Source of the DNA: a virus | Lineage: Duplodnaviria; Heunggongvirae; Uroviricota; Caudoviricetes | Reading direction: 5' to 3' (one strand) | Length of the DNA stretch: 64,000 nucleotides | Virus record (IMG/VR): IMGVR_UViG_2617271072_000004 | Location: 32,726-96,725 of that record | In this document: positions 2,594-16,070 of the stretch, piece by piece | How the letters are laid out: the number at the start of each line of letters is the position of its first letter | Position numbering within the stretch: the first letter of the stretch is position 1 | Translations under genes and position numbers: made by a program | The notes under the pieces: generated by a model | What the model was told of the DNA's origin: nothing | Databases searched by the model: none | What the model saw: the letters and a program-made list of their open reading frames with translations, nothing else

Positions 2594-3786
2594 TAATCAT
2601 CATCCCCGTATAGCTTGCGGGTAACTTCTTCGTCTTCCTCCTCGTCTTCGTCCAGGTCTTGTTCCAGCCATGGGTCGTTTGATACACCTTCAGTATCAAC
2701 ATCTCCATAACCGCCTGTATCAACGATATCGGCGATTTCTTCCCTACGCTGCTCAATCCACAATGCGGCATCGGCGCGGCGGTTGGCGGCCCGTTCTCGC
2801 GCAACTTTGTCCAGATCTTCAAGAGAAGGGCCACCGACGGCTGTTTGCCTTTCCTCATCATCGGTATTGGTCTTAGGAGCACGCAGATCGGCTTTGATTT
2901 GCTCCAGCATCAGGGGCGGTACTTTCCCTCCATGCGCCTCGATGAATTCAGCTGCCTCCAGCACTGACCAGTTGTTTTCACGCTTTCGTTCGTATGCCAG
3001 CTTAACAATGCCAGCTTGCCCCATAGACAAAGCGTGCTTTTCCGCCTCCCGGCTTTCTTTTCGATAGTTATTCCGGATGCTGTAAATGGTGTTGATCAGG
3101 CTGCTTATCTGCGCGGAACAGCTGTTTAGCATGCTCGCGATACGGTATTCAGGCGGAGTTCCTTCATCATCGTCTTTTTGCTGATCGCGCATTTCCTGAA
3201 CCAAGCGAATACACGTATCCCTGGCGTTCTCCAGCATAAGGAGATGAGAGAGAGACTTTTCCAGAAGAGTGGTTTCCAGAACATCAGCCCCGGACCGACG
3301 CAACATAGCGCGCGCGGCCTTCCGCGCTTCAACGTTATCTATCAGGTAATCGCCAGCTTCGAATTCAAAGCGTTCACCATCATCATCCAGGGTGTCGCGT
3401 TCCAGGCGATCACGTAAGGTCCGGTGGGCGCGGGTGATCACGTCATGATCATCAGAACGATCATTTATGCGCTTATTCTGGCGCTTCGCGTTCTCGACTG
3501 CGGCACTGACAACAGCATTAACTCTTTGTTTTTCAGCCATTTCAGCCACAATGTGATCACCTGCACGTTGATCATTAGCGTGATCAATGATCATGCTTTT
3601 TAGTGGTTTTCTGACAGGCTTATTTGGCTTACGGCTGTCCGCTGTTCCGGTGTCTTCTTTGAATGCACGGAGATAACGACGTGCGGTGTTTGGGTTGAGA
3701 TTAAACTCGGCGGCATATTGTGCGATGGTGTAACCACCATCTCGCGCCAGGCGAGCAAAATTCTTCTTGTGATCGTCCCAGGTCAC
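2593..3786 (-). CDS. pacA: terminase small subunit / pac-site recognition protein (PacA-like), 397 aa, GTG start
   Basis: N-terminal HTH-like region ([29 protein letters not shown]), highly acidic C-terminus, directly upstream of and overlapping large terminase. Confidence 0.75.
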
Positions 3787-9144: not shown

Positions 9145-9227
9145 TTGCTGAAAAAATCAAAAACATTTACTTTTGACATTATAAATTTTCTCTCGGTGTC
9201 GTAGGTGATAGCACCATAATTGATAAT

Positions 9228-11252: not shown

Positions 11253-11787
11253 ATCACTCTCCTTTAGTGCGCAAATGGTTTTTCCAGCGGTTTTGCGCCG
11301 CGCTGGGCTTTTGCAAAAACCACAATCCATCATCCCGTAATATTTCATCAACCCCATCCGTCGGTTGCTGAGTCTCACCCACTGCCAGACGCCAGGAGCG
11401 TTTCTACGAACTAACAGAATCTTTGCTTTACGGTTTTTCATCTTACAGCGTACCCTTTCTTCCGCCTGTTCTGTGACGCAGTAGGCTTACGCTTTGCGGC
11501 AAAAGCCACCTGACCAAATGGATGGAGTACCGCTATCTTATGGTTGCTAATAACCAGCTCCACCACACGCACAGGTCGCTGTAAAAAAAAGTCGTTTTGC
11601 CTTACGGTTTTTCATCGCTTTGCTCTCCTGCGTCTCTTTGCTGCTCGTCGTGCCGCTGCAATACCGGTATGGCGGCGCTTTGGTGCCGGGATGATGTTGT
11701 CAGCCATCAGGACATGTGGCTTTGCAATTAGCGCAGAAGCCCAAAAACGAGTCGGGTACGGTAACAAGCCGATACATGCCACACGCA

Positions 11788-12486
11788 CTACTCACCTCCG
11801 TTGATGCGAATGCCAGCGGCACGGGAATCATTCCATCGCTTTACTTCTTCACGAATTACGTCAATGCATTCTTTCGAATCCATTAGGTAATCTTCATCAA
11901 AAAGCCTTTCCTGTTCGTTTTCTATCGCAACAATGATTGCTTCAACTAACTTTTGTGCCTGAGAACCACTTTCTAACTCTGCAATGCGCTTCTCTGCGGC
12001 TTCCAGCTTCTCGCGCATATCGTCAACGTACTCGACCAGAGATCCGCCAGCAGGAATTTCGCACTCCTCGACCAGTTGGAAGTAGATATCAGCTGCGGCC
12101 CGTGTGTTGCTATGCCTAGCGTCGCCCATCTCACCTTCACGAAGAGCATCGCGTTCGGCGGTAAGATTGGCTATTTTGCTGTCTTTGCCTTCCAGCTCAA
12201 CGCGAAGCCTCCCTACCGTTAGCGCAATTTCCTCGTTCTCCTGGTCACGGCGTTTGATGTATTGCTGGTTTCTTTCCCGTTCATCCAGCAGCGCCAAGAC
12301 GGTAGCCGGATTGGCTGCGGCGATGAATTCAGCATCACGAGATTCGTTTTCACTGAACACCATAGCTATTTGCTCATGCTTTATGCCGTCAGTGGAGTAA
12401 ATCTCATCGTCGAATTCAACAGCCCACTTACCTTTCGTAGCCTTCTCCGCCGCCTCGCGCAGTTCTTGATAGTTAATTTTGCTCAC
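11788..12486 (-). CDS. Ead/Ea22-like family protein (232 aa), GTG start
   Basis: N-terminus VSKINYQELREAAEKATKGKW; coiled-coil middle; RBS AAAGGAGGC. Confidence 0.55.
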   Translation of the reverse strand: MSKINYQELREAAEKATKGKWAVEFDDEIYSTDGIKHEQIAMVFSENESRDAEFIAAANPATVLALLDERERNQQYIKRRDQENEEIALTVGRLRVELEGKDSKIANLTAERDALREGEMGDARHSNTRAAADIYFQLVEECEIPAGGSLVEYVDDMREKLEAAEKRIAELESGSQAQKLVEAIIVAIENEQERLFDEDYLMDSKECIDVIREEVKRWNDSRAAGIRINGGE

Positions 12487-13195
12487 TGGTTGCCTCCTTT
12501 GCGAAGCTGGGCAGCAAAGTCAACTAACCACTCAGTCATTTCAACCTTCCCTACCAGGTCTGAACCAGGGTGCATACAGCAATCACTCTGCGCCGCTTTG
12601 AAATCCTTATACTCATATTCTTGGGCCACCAGATTTTTGCAGCTTCTATAGCAGCATCCACCCCCTGCGCCCGAACTTCAGCCAGGAAAGCGTCGGTGGC
12701 TGGAATTTGCGGCATCCCTCCGTCTGTTGCGCAGATATACGCATCAGATATTTCATCCTGCTGGCCATCAAACACGTAGCAACAGCCCCTGATAAACAGC
12801 TTCATTGAGGCATTCTCCACTGCCAGCGCCGTGCGATTACCATCCAGCTCTGCAATGCGCTGTTTTGCGGCATCCAGTTCAATCGACAATTTTTCCAACT
12901 GCTCTTGATGCTTCTTGTATTCCTGATATGCGTGCCAAGACTGACCTTTGCGCACACTATCAGTGATATCAGTAATCTGTTCTGGTGTTAGCGTGGTCAG
13001 TGGCTGTGATGGGAAAATAAGCACTTTCCCGGAATCCCAATCAAAACCAGCGTGAATTGACTGAACCTCAACTGAAGGTGTTGAACCAATGCTGCCAGGC
13101 GAATGAACAACGATTGTTACATCCATATCGCGACGATGGCTGTGGTTGTTGGACAAAATACGATTCACCAACTCAGAAAATTTGGAAAATTTCAT
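12483..13195 (-). CDS. paralogue sharing the PATDAFLAE(V/I)RA block with 13479..14179; frame broken near 12640 (A-run)
   Basis: ORF 12551..13195 plus alternate-frame C-terminus ...EMTEWLVDFAAQLRKGGNQ* paralogous to neighbour C-termini. Confidence 0.45.
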
Positions 13196-13483
13196 GCTGA
13201 TTCCCCTTTCTCTGCTCTCTCCTGTCGGAACATCACTATCATCAGGTCGCCTTTTGTCGCTATCCTGGCTGTTGTACCTGGTTCAATGCGGCTAAGCTCA
13301 AATGCGTCATAGAACGCTTCTAATGCCTTCTGGCGTAGTTCCTGTTTGCGCCGTTTTTTCCACTGTTTTAGGAAAATGGAACCCAGCCATCGCCATGTAC
13401 GGGACATGATGTAAAGCCAACCGAGAAGTGCCAGACCGGTATTTAGGAGCGTATCGATCGTTATTGTCGTGTCGATATTCACT
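13192..13483 (-). CDS. small membrane protein (about 97 aa), GTG start overlapping upstream stop
   Basis: Hydrophobic LLNTGLALLGWLYIM; ORF track over-extends upstream. Confidence 0.4.
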
Positions 13484-14179
13484 GGCTGCTTCCTTTGCGA
13501 ATCTGTTCCGCCCATTCTTCAAGGGATTTCTCCGCATATTCACCAGACAGGCCATCAATCGGATGCGCTTCATTAGCCAACTCTTCTTTCGCTGACAAAA
13601 TCATGCGTGTAACGTCGAAAACTTCACGCAAAGACTTATTGATAAATCCGTGATTGAACGCAGCAGCAAGACGGCTGGCGGTATAGTTAATCCCCTCGTT
13701 GCGTGCTTCCGCACGAATTTCAGCCAGAAAAGCATCGGTAGCTGGAGTTTCGCTGTGGTGTAGGGCATCGTTGATAATCATTGCAGCAACACCAGCCTGC
13801 CCTGCATCCGTGACCGACACATGCTCAAGAGTTACGGCCATTGCGTGTTTCAGCCCGGCGTTCTCTGCCACCAGCGCCGCGAGCTTAGTCTCAAGCGGTG
13901 CTATTCGGCACATAGCATCAATATTTGTGTCCTCCAGGCGCTTAATTTCACCAAGTAGCGCCAGTGCAACCTTTGGGTTGAATGCGGCAACATAACGAGC
14001 GTTGTTCTCTGCGTTTTTCAGCCCATCAAAGCCGGTCCATTTGATAACATCTTCACATCGTTTATCACCGGGCGTATGCACCGCATACGTACCAGTACCC
14101 GGCGAAATAAATGCGACCCATTCGCCCTGTGTTGCCTGTTTTGCTATCTCACGCAGTGCCCGGTAATTAATTTTGCTCA
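13479..14179 (-). CDS. Ead/Ea22-like family protein (about 233 aa), GTG start; ORF track extends to 14216
   Basis: VSKINYRALREIAKQATQGEW N-terminus preceded by AAAGGAGGC RBS. Confidence 0.55.
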
Positions 14180-14417
14180 CTGGCTGCCTCCTTTGCGGAG
14201 TTGCGCTTCGATGCACGAAAAAAAAGACTCCCGAGTATGACTGTTAAGAGCTGGTGCGAACGCCGCGTTAAGAACGGCAGCATCACAGCCGTCATCAATA
14301 TAGAGCGCAATTTTTTTTCTCCAGGCGCGCTTTGGCTTCCTGCAACTGCATACCCCGGCACGCACGCGGGATATAATCAGCAATTTGAGCGATAGCTTTT
14401 TCGTTCTGTTTAAACAT
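14177..14417 (-). CDS. small protein (about 80 aa) ending ...IEAQLRKGGSQ; frame broken at T8 run near 14311
   Basis: ATG overlapping upstream stop; C-terminus paralogous to neighbours. Confidence 0.35.
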
Positions 14418-14613
14418 GCTTCACCTCGATAGGCTTGATGGTGTCTAACAGCAGTCGACGGCGCGTATTTTCTGCAAAGTGGCGGCGTCCGGTATCTTTG
14501 TGGTAAAACTCATTTTTGCCGACGACCCACATCCGCTCTGTTTGGTGCAGTTTTTTTACCTTCGGGCCATCTTTGGTGATCACGGTACCGGTATGGGTTT
14601 TTACGATTGTCAT
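14410..14613 (-). CDS. hypothetical small basic protein (67 aa)
   Basis: ORF, 4-nt overlap with PAPS-reductase-like gene. Confidence 0.4.
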   Translation of the reverse strand: MTIVKTHTGTVITKDGPKVKKLHQTERMWVVGKNEFYHKDTGRRHFAENTRRRLLLDTIKPIEVKHV

Positions 14614-15488
14614 TCCACTACCTCTTCGAATTTCAACTCCAATTGGTCACCCCAGATTTCACATGATTCGGAACACGAACCAGTATCAAACCGCTTGGCC
14701 AGCACCATCGCCTGATACAAATTTCTGTAGTCACTGTCGGCATACATTCTGGCAATCCCGTCAAGCGTCAGGTGGCCACGGTACATAACGTCTTTACCTG
14801 TTCTGCGATGACCATCCCTGACGTGTTTGCCTGTAACCAGTTCATTAAAAACCCGCATCAGACCTGGTTCGTCTTTACATGCAAGCCCCAGCTTTTGCGT
14901 TGACTTTTTGATGCAAAAAACACAGTTCCCGAGGTGCTCCGGGATTTGCAAATCAAAAGGTTGTTTTCGCCACCACCGGATAACATCCGACTTATCAAAA
15001 TCTGACAGTTCGGCAAGATACCGGACGCCCGGTTTCGGTTTCAGCCTACGGGGTTCGTCCGCACGAATACCCAGCCATGTGATGTAATTCCCTCGCCCAA
15101 AATGGTCATCGCAATATTTCGTGAAAGGGGTGAGTTTTAGCCTTTCAGTACAGAACGCGCCGCCGATGTATGGCGTACCGTACTTTTTAACCATGTCCAT
15201 AAACGGTTTAAGCACCGGCATTCGCGTCTGAATATCCTTTGGTTCCCATTCCGTATAACCATTTGGCTTCCCAATTTCTGGATTTATATCGACCTGCAAC
15301 ACCGTTAGCGGTACGTTCCAGAACTTCACAACCTCACGAATAAAGCGATACGTCAGAGGATGTTCACAGCCGGTATCCATAAAAATGAAATGGACGCTAG
15401 CGCCAGCTTTTCGCTGTGCTTCCATCAGATGAACGAGATAAGCCGATGTTCGTCCACCTGAAAAGCTGACGACTTGATGCATACTCAC
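14610..15488 (-). CDS. PAPS reductase-like (PP-loop ATP pyrophosphatase fold) protein, 292 aa
   Basis: PP-loop motif SFSGGRTS near N-terminus, C-terminal Cys cluster. Confidence 0.75.
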   Translation of the reverse strand: MSMHQVVSFSGGRTSAYLVHLMEAQRKAGASVHFIFMDTGCEHPLTYRFIREVVKFWNVPLTVLQVDINPEIGKPNGYTEWEPKDIQTRMPVLKPFMDMVKKYGTPYIGGAFCTERLKLTPFTKYCDDHFGRGNYITWLGIRADEPRRLKPKPGVRYLAELSDFDKSDVIRWWRKQPFDLQIPEHLGNCVFCIKKSTQKLGLACKDEPGLMRVFNELVTGKHVRDGHRRTGKDVMYRGHLTLDGIARMYADSDYRNLYQAMVLAKRFDTGSCSESCEIWGDQLELKFEEVVE

Positions 15489-15491
15489 GGT

Positions 15492-16070
15492 TTATTCCTG
15501 AATGCGCTTAAACTCGATTACCCATACCAACGGGTTAGATAGCCAGTTATCCTGCCCGTAAATACTGCGCCAGATATCACCAAAACCAACGCGATAAACA
15601 GCTTCAGATGGCGTAATCTTGTACGTCGCCGGAGTTGCGCCTTCTGCTTTAGCATCTGCCTCGCTCATGTCATGCAGCCGTTCCACACGCACGTCGGTAA
15701 TTTCCAGAAGAATGCGCGATGCCCAGCGCGGCATGTGAATTGATGGCGTCCACTTTTCTGATACTGGTTTATTACAAACCTCGACCGGAACCCGGTGCGT
15801 TTGTTCTGTCCAGGAGTTACGCACGCTTGCGCGATAAACCAGCGTTGCGACGTCCGTCGCTTTGCCATGTACCCGGTAGGTTTCGCGAACCCAAATACGA
15901 TCGCCCGGTTGACCATATGGACAATGCTTGGCAAGCAACTCTGCGGCCACTGCCCGTCCATAGAATTTTTCTTCAACAATCCTGCGAGTCTGTGTTTTAT
16001 TCCCGCCAAGAATTGCCCGGACCATCTCATCGTTAAAAATCATGCCGCGCTCTTTCACTTCGCCTTTCAT
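15492..16070 (-). CDS. ASCH/PUA-like domain protein (192 aa)
   Basis: N-terminal MIFNDEMVRAILGGNKTQTRR resembles ASCH GxKxxExR signature. Confidence 0.45.
   Translation of the reverse strand: MKGEVKERGMIFNDEMVRAILGGNKTQTRRIVEEKFYGRAVAAELLAKHCPYGQPGDRIWVRETYRVHGKATDVATLVYRASVRNSWTEQTHRVPVEVCNKPVSEKWTPSIHMPRWASRILLEITDVRVERLHDMSEADAKAEGATPATYKITPSEAVYRVGFGDIWRSIYGQDNWLSNPLVWVIEFKRIQE

Follow-up and report, generated by a model that had tools for sequence, protein, structure and literature searches.

Why would genes that are otherwise unlike each other end in nearly the same codons, and why would those codons hold the start of the next gene? The question is raised by an array of overlapping minus-strand genes at positions 11788 to 14417 of a 64,000-nt stretch of caudoviral DNA (IMG/VR record IMGVR_UViG_2617271072_000004, positions 32,726 to 96,725; hereafter, the window). 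Three of these genes, numbered G1 to G5 in the direction in which they are read, end in a tail whose codons form the Shine-Dalgarno sequence (SD) and GTG start of the gene that follows. We refer to this stop/SD/start sequence as the junction and to its copies as J1 to J3. Our preferred reading, to which we assign a probability of about 0.6, is that the junction is a portable intercistronic translational-coupling element of lambdoid and P22-like early accessory operons that marks, and probably guides, the exchange of gene cassettes.

The junction and its neighbors

A 21-mer, CGCAAAGGAGGCAGCCAGTGA, occurred in three minus-strand copies, at 14177-14197 without mismatch and at 13479-13499 and 12483-12503 with one mismatch each, and no copies are expected by chance (none in 100 shuffles). 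A search with the 15-nt core GGAGGCAACCAGTGA returned the same three sites, and the repeat family to which the junction belongs reached 27 nt at 89% identity. The copies are as follows (asterisks denote stop codons).

14177..14203, minus strand: J1; end of G1 (..AQLRKGGSQ*), SD AAGGAGG, spacer CAGCCA, GTG start of G2 over the TGA stop
13479..13505, minus strand: J2; end of G2 (..EQIRKGSSQ*), weakened SD AAGGAAG, GTG start of G3 (DUF4752)
12483..12509, minus strand: J3; end of G4 (..AQLRKGGNQ*), SD AAGGAGG, GTG start of G5

Stop and start overlap by the four nucleotides GTGA in each case (14177-14180, 13479-13482, and 12483-12486), and the SD lies inside the upstream open reading frame (ORF), separated from the GTG by a 6-nt spacer. 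The SD is a perfect 7-nt match at J1 and J3, where the duplex with the 16S 3' end was calculated at -11.6 kcal/mol, compared with -5.6 kcal/mol at J2. The GTGs within the junctions are also the starts annotated by PGAP in relatives. The first-pass annotation of this DNA had proposed three copies carrying a ribosome binding site and GTG start, exactly as found here, within a run of four consecutive genes sharing the tail. The tail itself is real but is carried by three genes, G1, G2, and G4, and these are not consecutive: G3, which ends in ..EKGESA* with an ATGA junction, sits between G2 and G4, and G5 ends in ..RINGGE*. The suggested role in translational coupling is consistent with the anatomy: given a strong SD, a 6-nt spacer, and a GTG laid over the TGA, a ribosome ending one cassette could start the next, whatever genes flank the junction.

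An RNA element was ruled out, as Rfam gave no match at E<=1 and no significant fold was obtained at any of the three junctions (z of -0.3 to -1.3). A 14-nt inverted repeat bracketing J3 was dismissed since it is absent at J1 and J2.

The wider distribution of the junction was assessed by BLAST of a junction-centered 30-mer against complete Escherichia coli genomes and phage records. The 30-mer was present in 2130 of 5426 E. coli genomes (~39%), at 3517 places (3017 chromosomal and 500 on plasmids) and at most 10 times per genome; 1246 E. coli records carried it at >=99% identity. The J3 allele was the commonest in this wider population. Matches were likewise found in 273 phage records, among them HK544, HK75, mEpX1, and Gally (EaE-EaD), the P22-like Salmonella phage SE1 (EaE-EaA), and many Stx phages; in these phages the junction lies in the early-left (PL) operon, just distal to erf/recombinase genes and ahead of xis/int. 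The copy in HK544 (locus L329, 3545-4187) ends an HK620p08-like gene and is followed by ~160 nt without an annotated gene and then by an AlpA-like regulator and an integrase; it may be a remnant left after cassette loss.

The junction joins at least 5 upstream to at least 11 downstream gene families, in 17 combinations. The upstream set includes the PATDAFLAE family, the ..NKYLNAMWRKGGNQ family, G1, and two singletons, and the downstream families include Ead/Ea22, DUF7739, DUF4752, one that we label X214, and methyltransferase-like and PAPS-reductase-like proteins. Among 115 junction instances compared with their 300-nt flanks, both flanks were unrelated in 5461 of 6555 instance pairs. In pairs that were >=90% identical upstream and unrelated downstream, homology ended 0 to 4 nt after the TGA in 257 of 383 cases (67%); in the converse pairs, alike downstream and unrelated upstream, it ended 0 to 4 nt before the CGC in 250 of 300 (83%). 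Breakpoints thus fall at both edges of the junction.

The same behavior was seen among close relatives of the window. Sister P1-like plasmids were 97 to 99% identical through G4, yet the gene after the G4 junction varied: an Ead protein termed Ead232 in the window, X214 in pGF66.2-B, and a different Ead protein (Ead251) in pUMNF18_103; four plasmids had DUF7739 there. Homology with the window ended at 12479 (X214), 12458 (Ead251), and 12483 (DUF7739). X214 followed G4 in one P1-like plasmid and G1 in another. Between the window and pGF66.2-B, a second breakpoint was located at ~12303, within the conserved Ead core. The junction between G2 and DUF4752, of the J2 type, was present in 29 of 79 loci anchored on DUF4752.

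Because the same 21 to 30 nt are identical between otherwise unrelated cassettes, the junction would be the point at which cassettes are exchanged. That identity and the breakpoints at its edges suggest that it guides recombination, probably by supplying the short homology for one crossover; the second crossover would take place in another conserved island, for example, the Ead core. Annealing recombinases of the Red-beta, Erf, or RecT type would suit such a junction-paired crossover. The minimal efficient pairing segment is 23 to 27 bp for Red-beta and 31 to 34 bp for RecA (PMC3945230), and the length of the junction fits the former and is below the latter.

Several observations weigh against this reading. 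Perfect runs between the window's own copies are just 13 and 17 nt long, shorter than any known minimal pairing length. Polymorphisms in the core associate with both flanks above the null, an association confounded by relatedness, and no crossover inside the junction was observed. In 33 of the 79 loci, the GTG start of DUF4752 is preceded by other upstream sequence, unrelated to the junction and of at least two kinds, so precise gene-boundary joints also arise without the junction. Finally, the residues F-A-A-Q-L just upstream of the tail are conserved at the protein level, with free wobble, and diverged variants with a similar peptide exist (LRRGSSK* and LREGGNQ*).

The first and third of these points also favor the main rival, a credible one, which holds that the junction is kept only as an efficient initiation or coupling signal and has no role in recombination. 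Illegitimate or flanking-homology recombination would shuffle the cassettes, and selection would retain only the joints at gene boundaries. On such an account, it is readily understood that three or more unrelated sequences lie upstream of DUF4752, all joined to it at the identical GTG, and that almost every neighboring gene pair of the operon has a 4-nt overlap (ATGA or GTGA) irrespective of junction sequence. It accounts poorly for spacer and pre-SD bases that lack a strict initiation role and are as invariant as the SD itself. Independent illegitimate joints are also unlikely to recreate one 21- to 30-mer in at least 17 gene-pair combinations, and the >=99% identity of the 30-mer across so many E. 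coli records points the same way. We regard a signal kept for initiation alone as the strongest competitor to a portable, exchange-marking element, though on balance a less likely one.

Other junctions in these operons were also recorded. At the DUF4752 GTG (loci L248-L327, 30 nt upstream of position 1501), at least three unrelated junctions were distinguished, namely type A (the element described here), ..TTTCAGGAGGTGGCGTAGTG, and ..GCAGGAGCCACCACAGTG, each with its own SD and overlapping stop. A second recurrent junction with the SD in the tail was found at 11786-11817 (minus strand) of the window and in loci L245 (4263-4290), L247 (3171-3200), and L002 (2754-2780). Here, Ead-type proteins end in ..GIRI(K/N)G(G)E*, coded by GGCATTCGCATCAA(A/C)GGAG(A/G)..TGA/TAG, and the next start is 0 to 2 nt away; unrelated small proteins end in ..KGE* or ..KGD* in like fashion. 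Since this second type recurs, including in unrelated small proteins, ea-type operons seem to draw on a small set of reusable junctions.

Conservation of the junction as nucleotides

We scanned IMG/VR with the pattern CGCAARGGNRGNARYCARTGA, in which all synonymous positions were left open apart from those in the Arg codon. It returned 125 instances, of which 102 were CGCAAAGGAGGCAACCAGTGA and 124 used AAA GGA. The 120 matches listed for the same pattern in a general genome collection comprised 88 variants, with even wobble usage and at about the number expected by chance; these matches, from unrelated phyla, were used solely as a null for wobble usage, and their evenness shows the scan pattern itself to be unbiased. 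One of the 125 IMG/VR instances, L094, whose core is CGCAAGGGTGGCAATCAATGA and which closes an 866-codon ORF, is probably a chance match and was left aside. A further variant, CGCAAAGGTGGGAGCCAATGA, recurred among the matches in the general collection, in 10 genomes of unrelated phyla (L129, L134, L146, L172, L185, L187, and four more), with no long ORF through the site; it probably lies in a gene for a conserved structural RNA and has no relation to the phage junction.

Synonymous variation was then compared across 64 representatives with <80% flank identity, using pairs with the same amino acid at a given codon. Codons differed in 29 to 67% of such pairs at positions -10 to -3 and in only 3 to 6% at the tail codons K, G, G, N/S, and Q, a ~10-fold drop in synonymous differences from the codons immediately before the tail. 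The low variation extended to two wobble positions in the spacer, for which the SD and the start codon offer no explanation. Identity of the junction DNA thus exceeds what the protein requires, and the similarity is not explained entirely by protein-level constraint, which the first-pass annotation had named as grounds for rejecting its view.

The junction is also read in more than one frame. Other real genes read its core (15 to 19 nt) in the +1 frame, giving the endings ..WEAEATSE*, ..KQEATSEQD*, and ..IFMKEATSE*, and a 1-nt-shifted allele ends in ..AQLCQEATSEQN*. When the 19-mer GGAGGCAACCAGTGAGCAA, which leaves the upstream sequence unconstrained, was used as an anchor, frame +1 could be assigned without ambiguity to 17 of the 90 unique upstream contexts, and CGT, CGA, and CAC were also found at the position of the Arg codon. 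Because other genes read the core in the +1 frame, the conserved unit is roughly (A)AAGGAGGCA(A/G)CCAGTGA, that is, SD, spacer, and start, and the peptide tail RKGG(N/S)Q arises incidentally when the junction is read in one frame.

These results bear directly on the proposal that the C-terminal peptide (L/I)RKGG(N/S)Q is functional, for instance as a partner-binding or degradation tag, with DNA identity secondary. The proposal draws on the diverged variants mentioned above, in which the tail is kept although the DNA has changed, and on the preceding residues, whose conservation as F-A-A/E-Q/E-L with free wobble is the pattern of selection on protein. Both observations indicate that G2 and G4 owe some of their similarity to ordinary protein homology. 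Yet the genes that read the same nucleotides in another frame have unrelated tails (..EATSE*), the shifted allele does likewise, unrelated families have in common just the six residues coded by SD, spacer, and start, and synonymous differences are scarce precisely where the tail is encoded. A peptide function as the reason for the conservation is accordingly improbable.

The array and its replicon

The first-pass annotation had explained the three copies by duplication of a gene cassette together with its junction. The features needed to judge this are listed here.

14610..15488, minus strand: PAPS-reductase-like gene, present in some relatives and absent in others
14410..14613, minus strand: G0, 67 amino acids, phrog_1226; upstream, in the same operon of overlapping genes
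14177..14417, minus strand: G1, 79 amino acids, phrog_1344, an 'unknown function' family; split in the window near 14311
13479..14180, minus strand: G2, 233 amino acids, mosaic; Ead/Ea22 N-terminal domain, PATDAFLAEIRA block and C-terminal half common to G4
13710..13750, minus strand: PATDAFLAEIRA block in G2, partner of 12668-12708
13192..13482, minus strand: G3, 96 amino acids, DUF4752; start is the GTG of J2; end ..EKGESA*, ATGA junction
12483..13195, minus strand: G4, 237 amino acids; own N-terminal part (phrog_6026), C-terminal half common to G2; split near 12633
12668..12708, minus strand: PATDAFLAEVRA block in G4, a 41-nt island with 85% identity to its partner in G2
11788..12486, minus strand: G5, 232 amino acids, Ead/Ea22 family; start is the GTG of J3; end ..GIRINGGE*, TAGTG junction

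Two of these rows carry breaks that we do not attribute to biology. G1 is broken by an extra A near 14311 (A8, compared with A7 in relatives) and G4 by a missing A near 12633 (A5, compared with A6). In-frame alleles were present in all relatives examined and were found in 19 and 45 loci, respectively, and the frameshift alleles occurred neither in IMG/VR nor in any fetched locus. Over ~10 kb, the window showed at least seven private single-base differences in the length of A/T runs relative to all P1-like relatives examined (at 9159, 11308, 11583, 12633, 14311, 16791, and 18353). These private differences, and the absence of the frameshift alleles elsewhere, rule out programmed frameshifting or slippage at the two A runs; the breaks are probably homopolymer sequencing or assembly errors, and we therefore treated G1 and G4 as intact.

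The region matched P1-like phage-plasmids (genus Punavirus). The closest records were the E. coli plasmids pGF66.2-B and pUMNF18_103, with 99.2 to 99.6% identity across 92 to 94% of the query, and phage vB_EcoM-Ro157c2YLVW was also among them; Stx-converting and other lambdoid phages matched parts of the region at 93 to 94%. The array is bounded by pmgS/phosphatase genes on one side and hot on the other and falls in 'variable region 8' (pmgT...humD) of P1-like phage-plasmids (PMC9603915). As its genes are of the lambdoid 'ea'/exo-xis type, the locus is a lambdoid accessory module on a P1-like replicon. The earlier view of a diversifying accessory locus agrees with this placement and with the comparison across P1-like genomes that it had called for to detect copy-number variation, in which seven relatives showed five different cassette orders. 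In consensus scans of the minus strand, one promoter-like site (16293-16264) and two terminator-like sites (16825-16797 and 9502-9486) were marked, with neither kind of site at the junctions; these positions hint at one long operon.

Other joints of the mosaic were noted around the PAPS-reductase-like gene. In all P1-like relatives without this gene, homology stops at ~14630, ~17 nt upstream of where G0 starts, so that a mosaic joint again falls at a gene boundary. Next to it, the ASCH-like gene (15420-15746 region) is just ~70% identical between variants. At 6463-6490 of L244 (p18AR0366B), an ASCH-domain gene runs into the 3' part of the junction (..ATTCAGGGGGCAACCAGTGAGCAAAAT..) as a fusion, reads it in the +1 frame as ..RIQGATSEQN*, and overlaps the Ead start by 14 nt. 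This fusion looks like the product of a deletion with one end inside the junction, by which the PAPS-reductase gene, G0, and G1 were lost.

Pfam and PHROGs yielded only Ead_Ea22, DUF4752, PAPS_reduct, and 'unknown function' families for these genes. Ead/Ea22-like N termini had been claimed for two genes, and both G2 and G5 passed the Pfam threshold for Ead_Ea22 (PF13935), with 93.1 and 97.8 bits, respectively, against a cut-off of 27; G1, G3, and G4 had no match to it in the Pfam search. The PATDAFLAE(I/V)RA block, likewise assigned to two genes, was located in G2 and G4. Pairwise alignment showed the similarity of neighbors to be of domain extent: G2 and G5 were 31% identical over the N-terminal ~115 amino acids only, G2 and G4 25% identical over the C-terminal ~170 only, G1 and G4 had the last nine residues alone in common, and G3 was unrelated to the other array proteins. 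PHROG matches fell on different subsegments of G2, G4, and G5. Ea22 genes are known to be mosaic, with a conserved N terminus and unrelated C-terminal parts (PMC10834534).

Within the array, DNA repeats were confined to islands of 27, 35, 41, and 90 nt, none of which spans a whole cassette. The PATDAFLAE(I/V)RA islands of G2 and G4 differ at wobble positions, a pattern of protein-level conservation, and the surrounding sequence is dissimilar; many of the upstream proteins in the IMG/VR set also contain the block (..AFLAEVRAQGVE..), which looks like a mosaic boundary within proteins at the level of domains. The 35-nt repeat (83% identity, minus strand) links 11972-12006 in G5 (AAEKRIAELE) with 12843-12877 in G4 (AAKQRIAELD) and represents a coiled-coil segment common to these otherwise different proteins.

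The proposal of a local tandem paralogue array, formed by duplicating one gene with its coupling junction, was thus not supported. What had invited it was that the junction has three direct copies in a stretch of 1.7 kb and that two Ead/Ea22 genes and two PATDAFLAE genes lie in one array. No gene pair is homologous over its full length, however, and the restriction of DNA similarity to islands of 27 to 90 nt leaves duplication of a cassette with its junction unsupported; moreover, each gene has near-identical orthologues elsewhere in other gene orders, and the junction is common to unrelated families across lambdoid phages. We consider such a duplication very unlikely. Less probable still is an integron-like system in which a dedicated site-specific cassette recombinase acts on the junction, since, for all the cassette-like behavior and nucleotide-precise breakpoints, no integrase was annotated beside the arrays in seven P1-like plasmids, the junction has no conserved inverted repeat, attC-like structure, or significant fold, and the other ends of the cassettes differ in sequence.

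Known linkers and cassettes

That lambdoid modules are separated by boundary sequences, and that overlapping codons couple translation, are established ideas. The 'linker' or boundary-sequence model of modular lambdoid evolution goes back to Susskind and Botstein (1978) and Botstein (1980), and boundary sequences of HK620 were reported by Clark et al. (2001), as these works are cited in PMC3233612 and PMC2839356. Like a Botstein linker, the junction is short, conserved, and placed between exchangeable modules of lambdoid and P22-like early operons, with unrelated flanks and mosaic joints at its edges; it differs in being a defined stop/SD/start sequence of 15 to 27 nt that is partly coding, serves genes in either of two reading frames, and occurs in P1-like phage-plasmids as well. 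That the junction is a true Botstein linker, sized for annealing recombinases and below the reach of RecA, and that ea-type arrays are integrase-free cassette arrays is a bolder version of our reading, which we advance tentatively.

Similarity in function only links the junction to the PeSL cassettes of T4-type phages (Arbiol et al. 2010, PMC2839356), in which repeated regulatory elements lie between nonessential ORFs in hyperplastic regions and have been proposed to provide homology by which cassettes are inserted, deleted, or replaced while ensuring expression of the incoming gene. PeSL elements are ~100 bp long, intergenic, and transcriptional, comprising a sigma-70 promoter and a stem-loop terminator, and their mini-circle intermediates have been demonstrated, whereas the junction is 15 to 27 nt long, is translational, and lacks promoter and hairpin. 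With ordinary ATGA/GTGA coupling it shares the 4-nt overlap (here GTGA), an SD in the upstream gene 6 nt from the start, and tightly packed same-strand genes; ordinary junctions are specific to a gene pair, whereas this one sequence is reused in at least 17. Finally, G2 and G5 resemble the mosaic Ea22 genes of lambda and Stx phages in their conserved Ead/Ea22 N-terminal segment and coiled coil and in their unrelated C termini, but the work on those genes covers mosaicism of protein domains and does not describe the shared junction upstream (PMC10834534).

A full-text literature search, which excluded Clark et al. (2001), returned no relevant prior description of the nucleotide or peptide motif, and the breakpoints are not discussed in PMC9836094. 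Within the literature so searched, we found no description of the use of the junction in two frames, of its high abundance, or of its presence in both lambdoid prophages and P1-like plasmids.

For annotation, short conserved C-terminal tails such as RKGGNQ and EATSE can be the read-through of a translation-initiation element and not protein motifs, and the right starts of the downstream genes are the GTGs within the junction. For phage evolution, the junction bears on the long-standing question of whether mosaicism is guided by short boundary sequences or reflects random illegitimate joints filtered by selection. As a candidate linker, it is well defined and highly abundant (~3500 sites among 5426 E. 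coli genomes) and has unrelated flanks, nucleotide-precise breakpoints, and a length at the pairing threshold of phage recombinases, which makes that question directly testable. The junction also shows that accessory cassettes come from a single pool shared by lambdoid prophages and P1-like phage-plasmids. If our reading is true, a gene that gains this 15- to 27-nt stop/SD/start element would become movable, in frame and ready for expression, among lambdoid prophages, P22-like phages, and P1-like phage-plasmids, and the junction would provide concrete, testable support for homology-guided mosaicism over purely illegitimate recombination.

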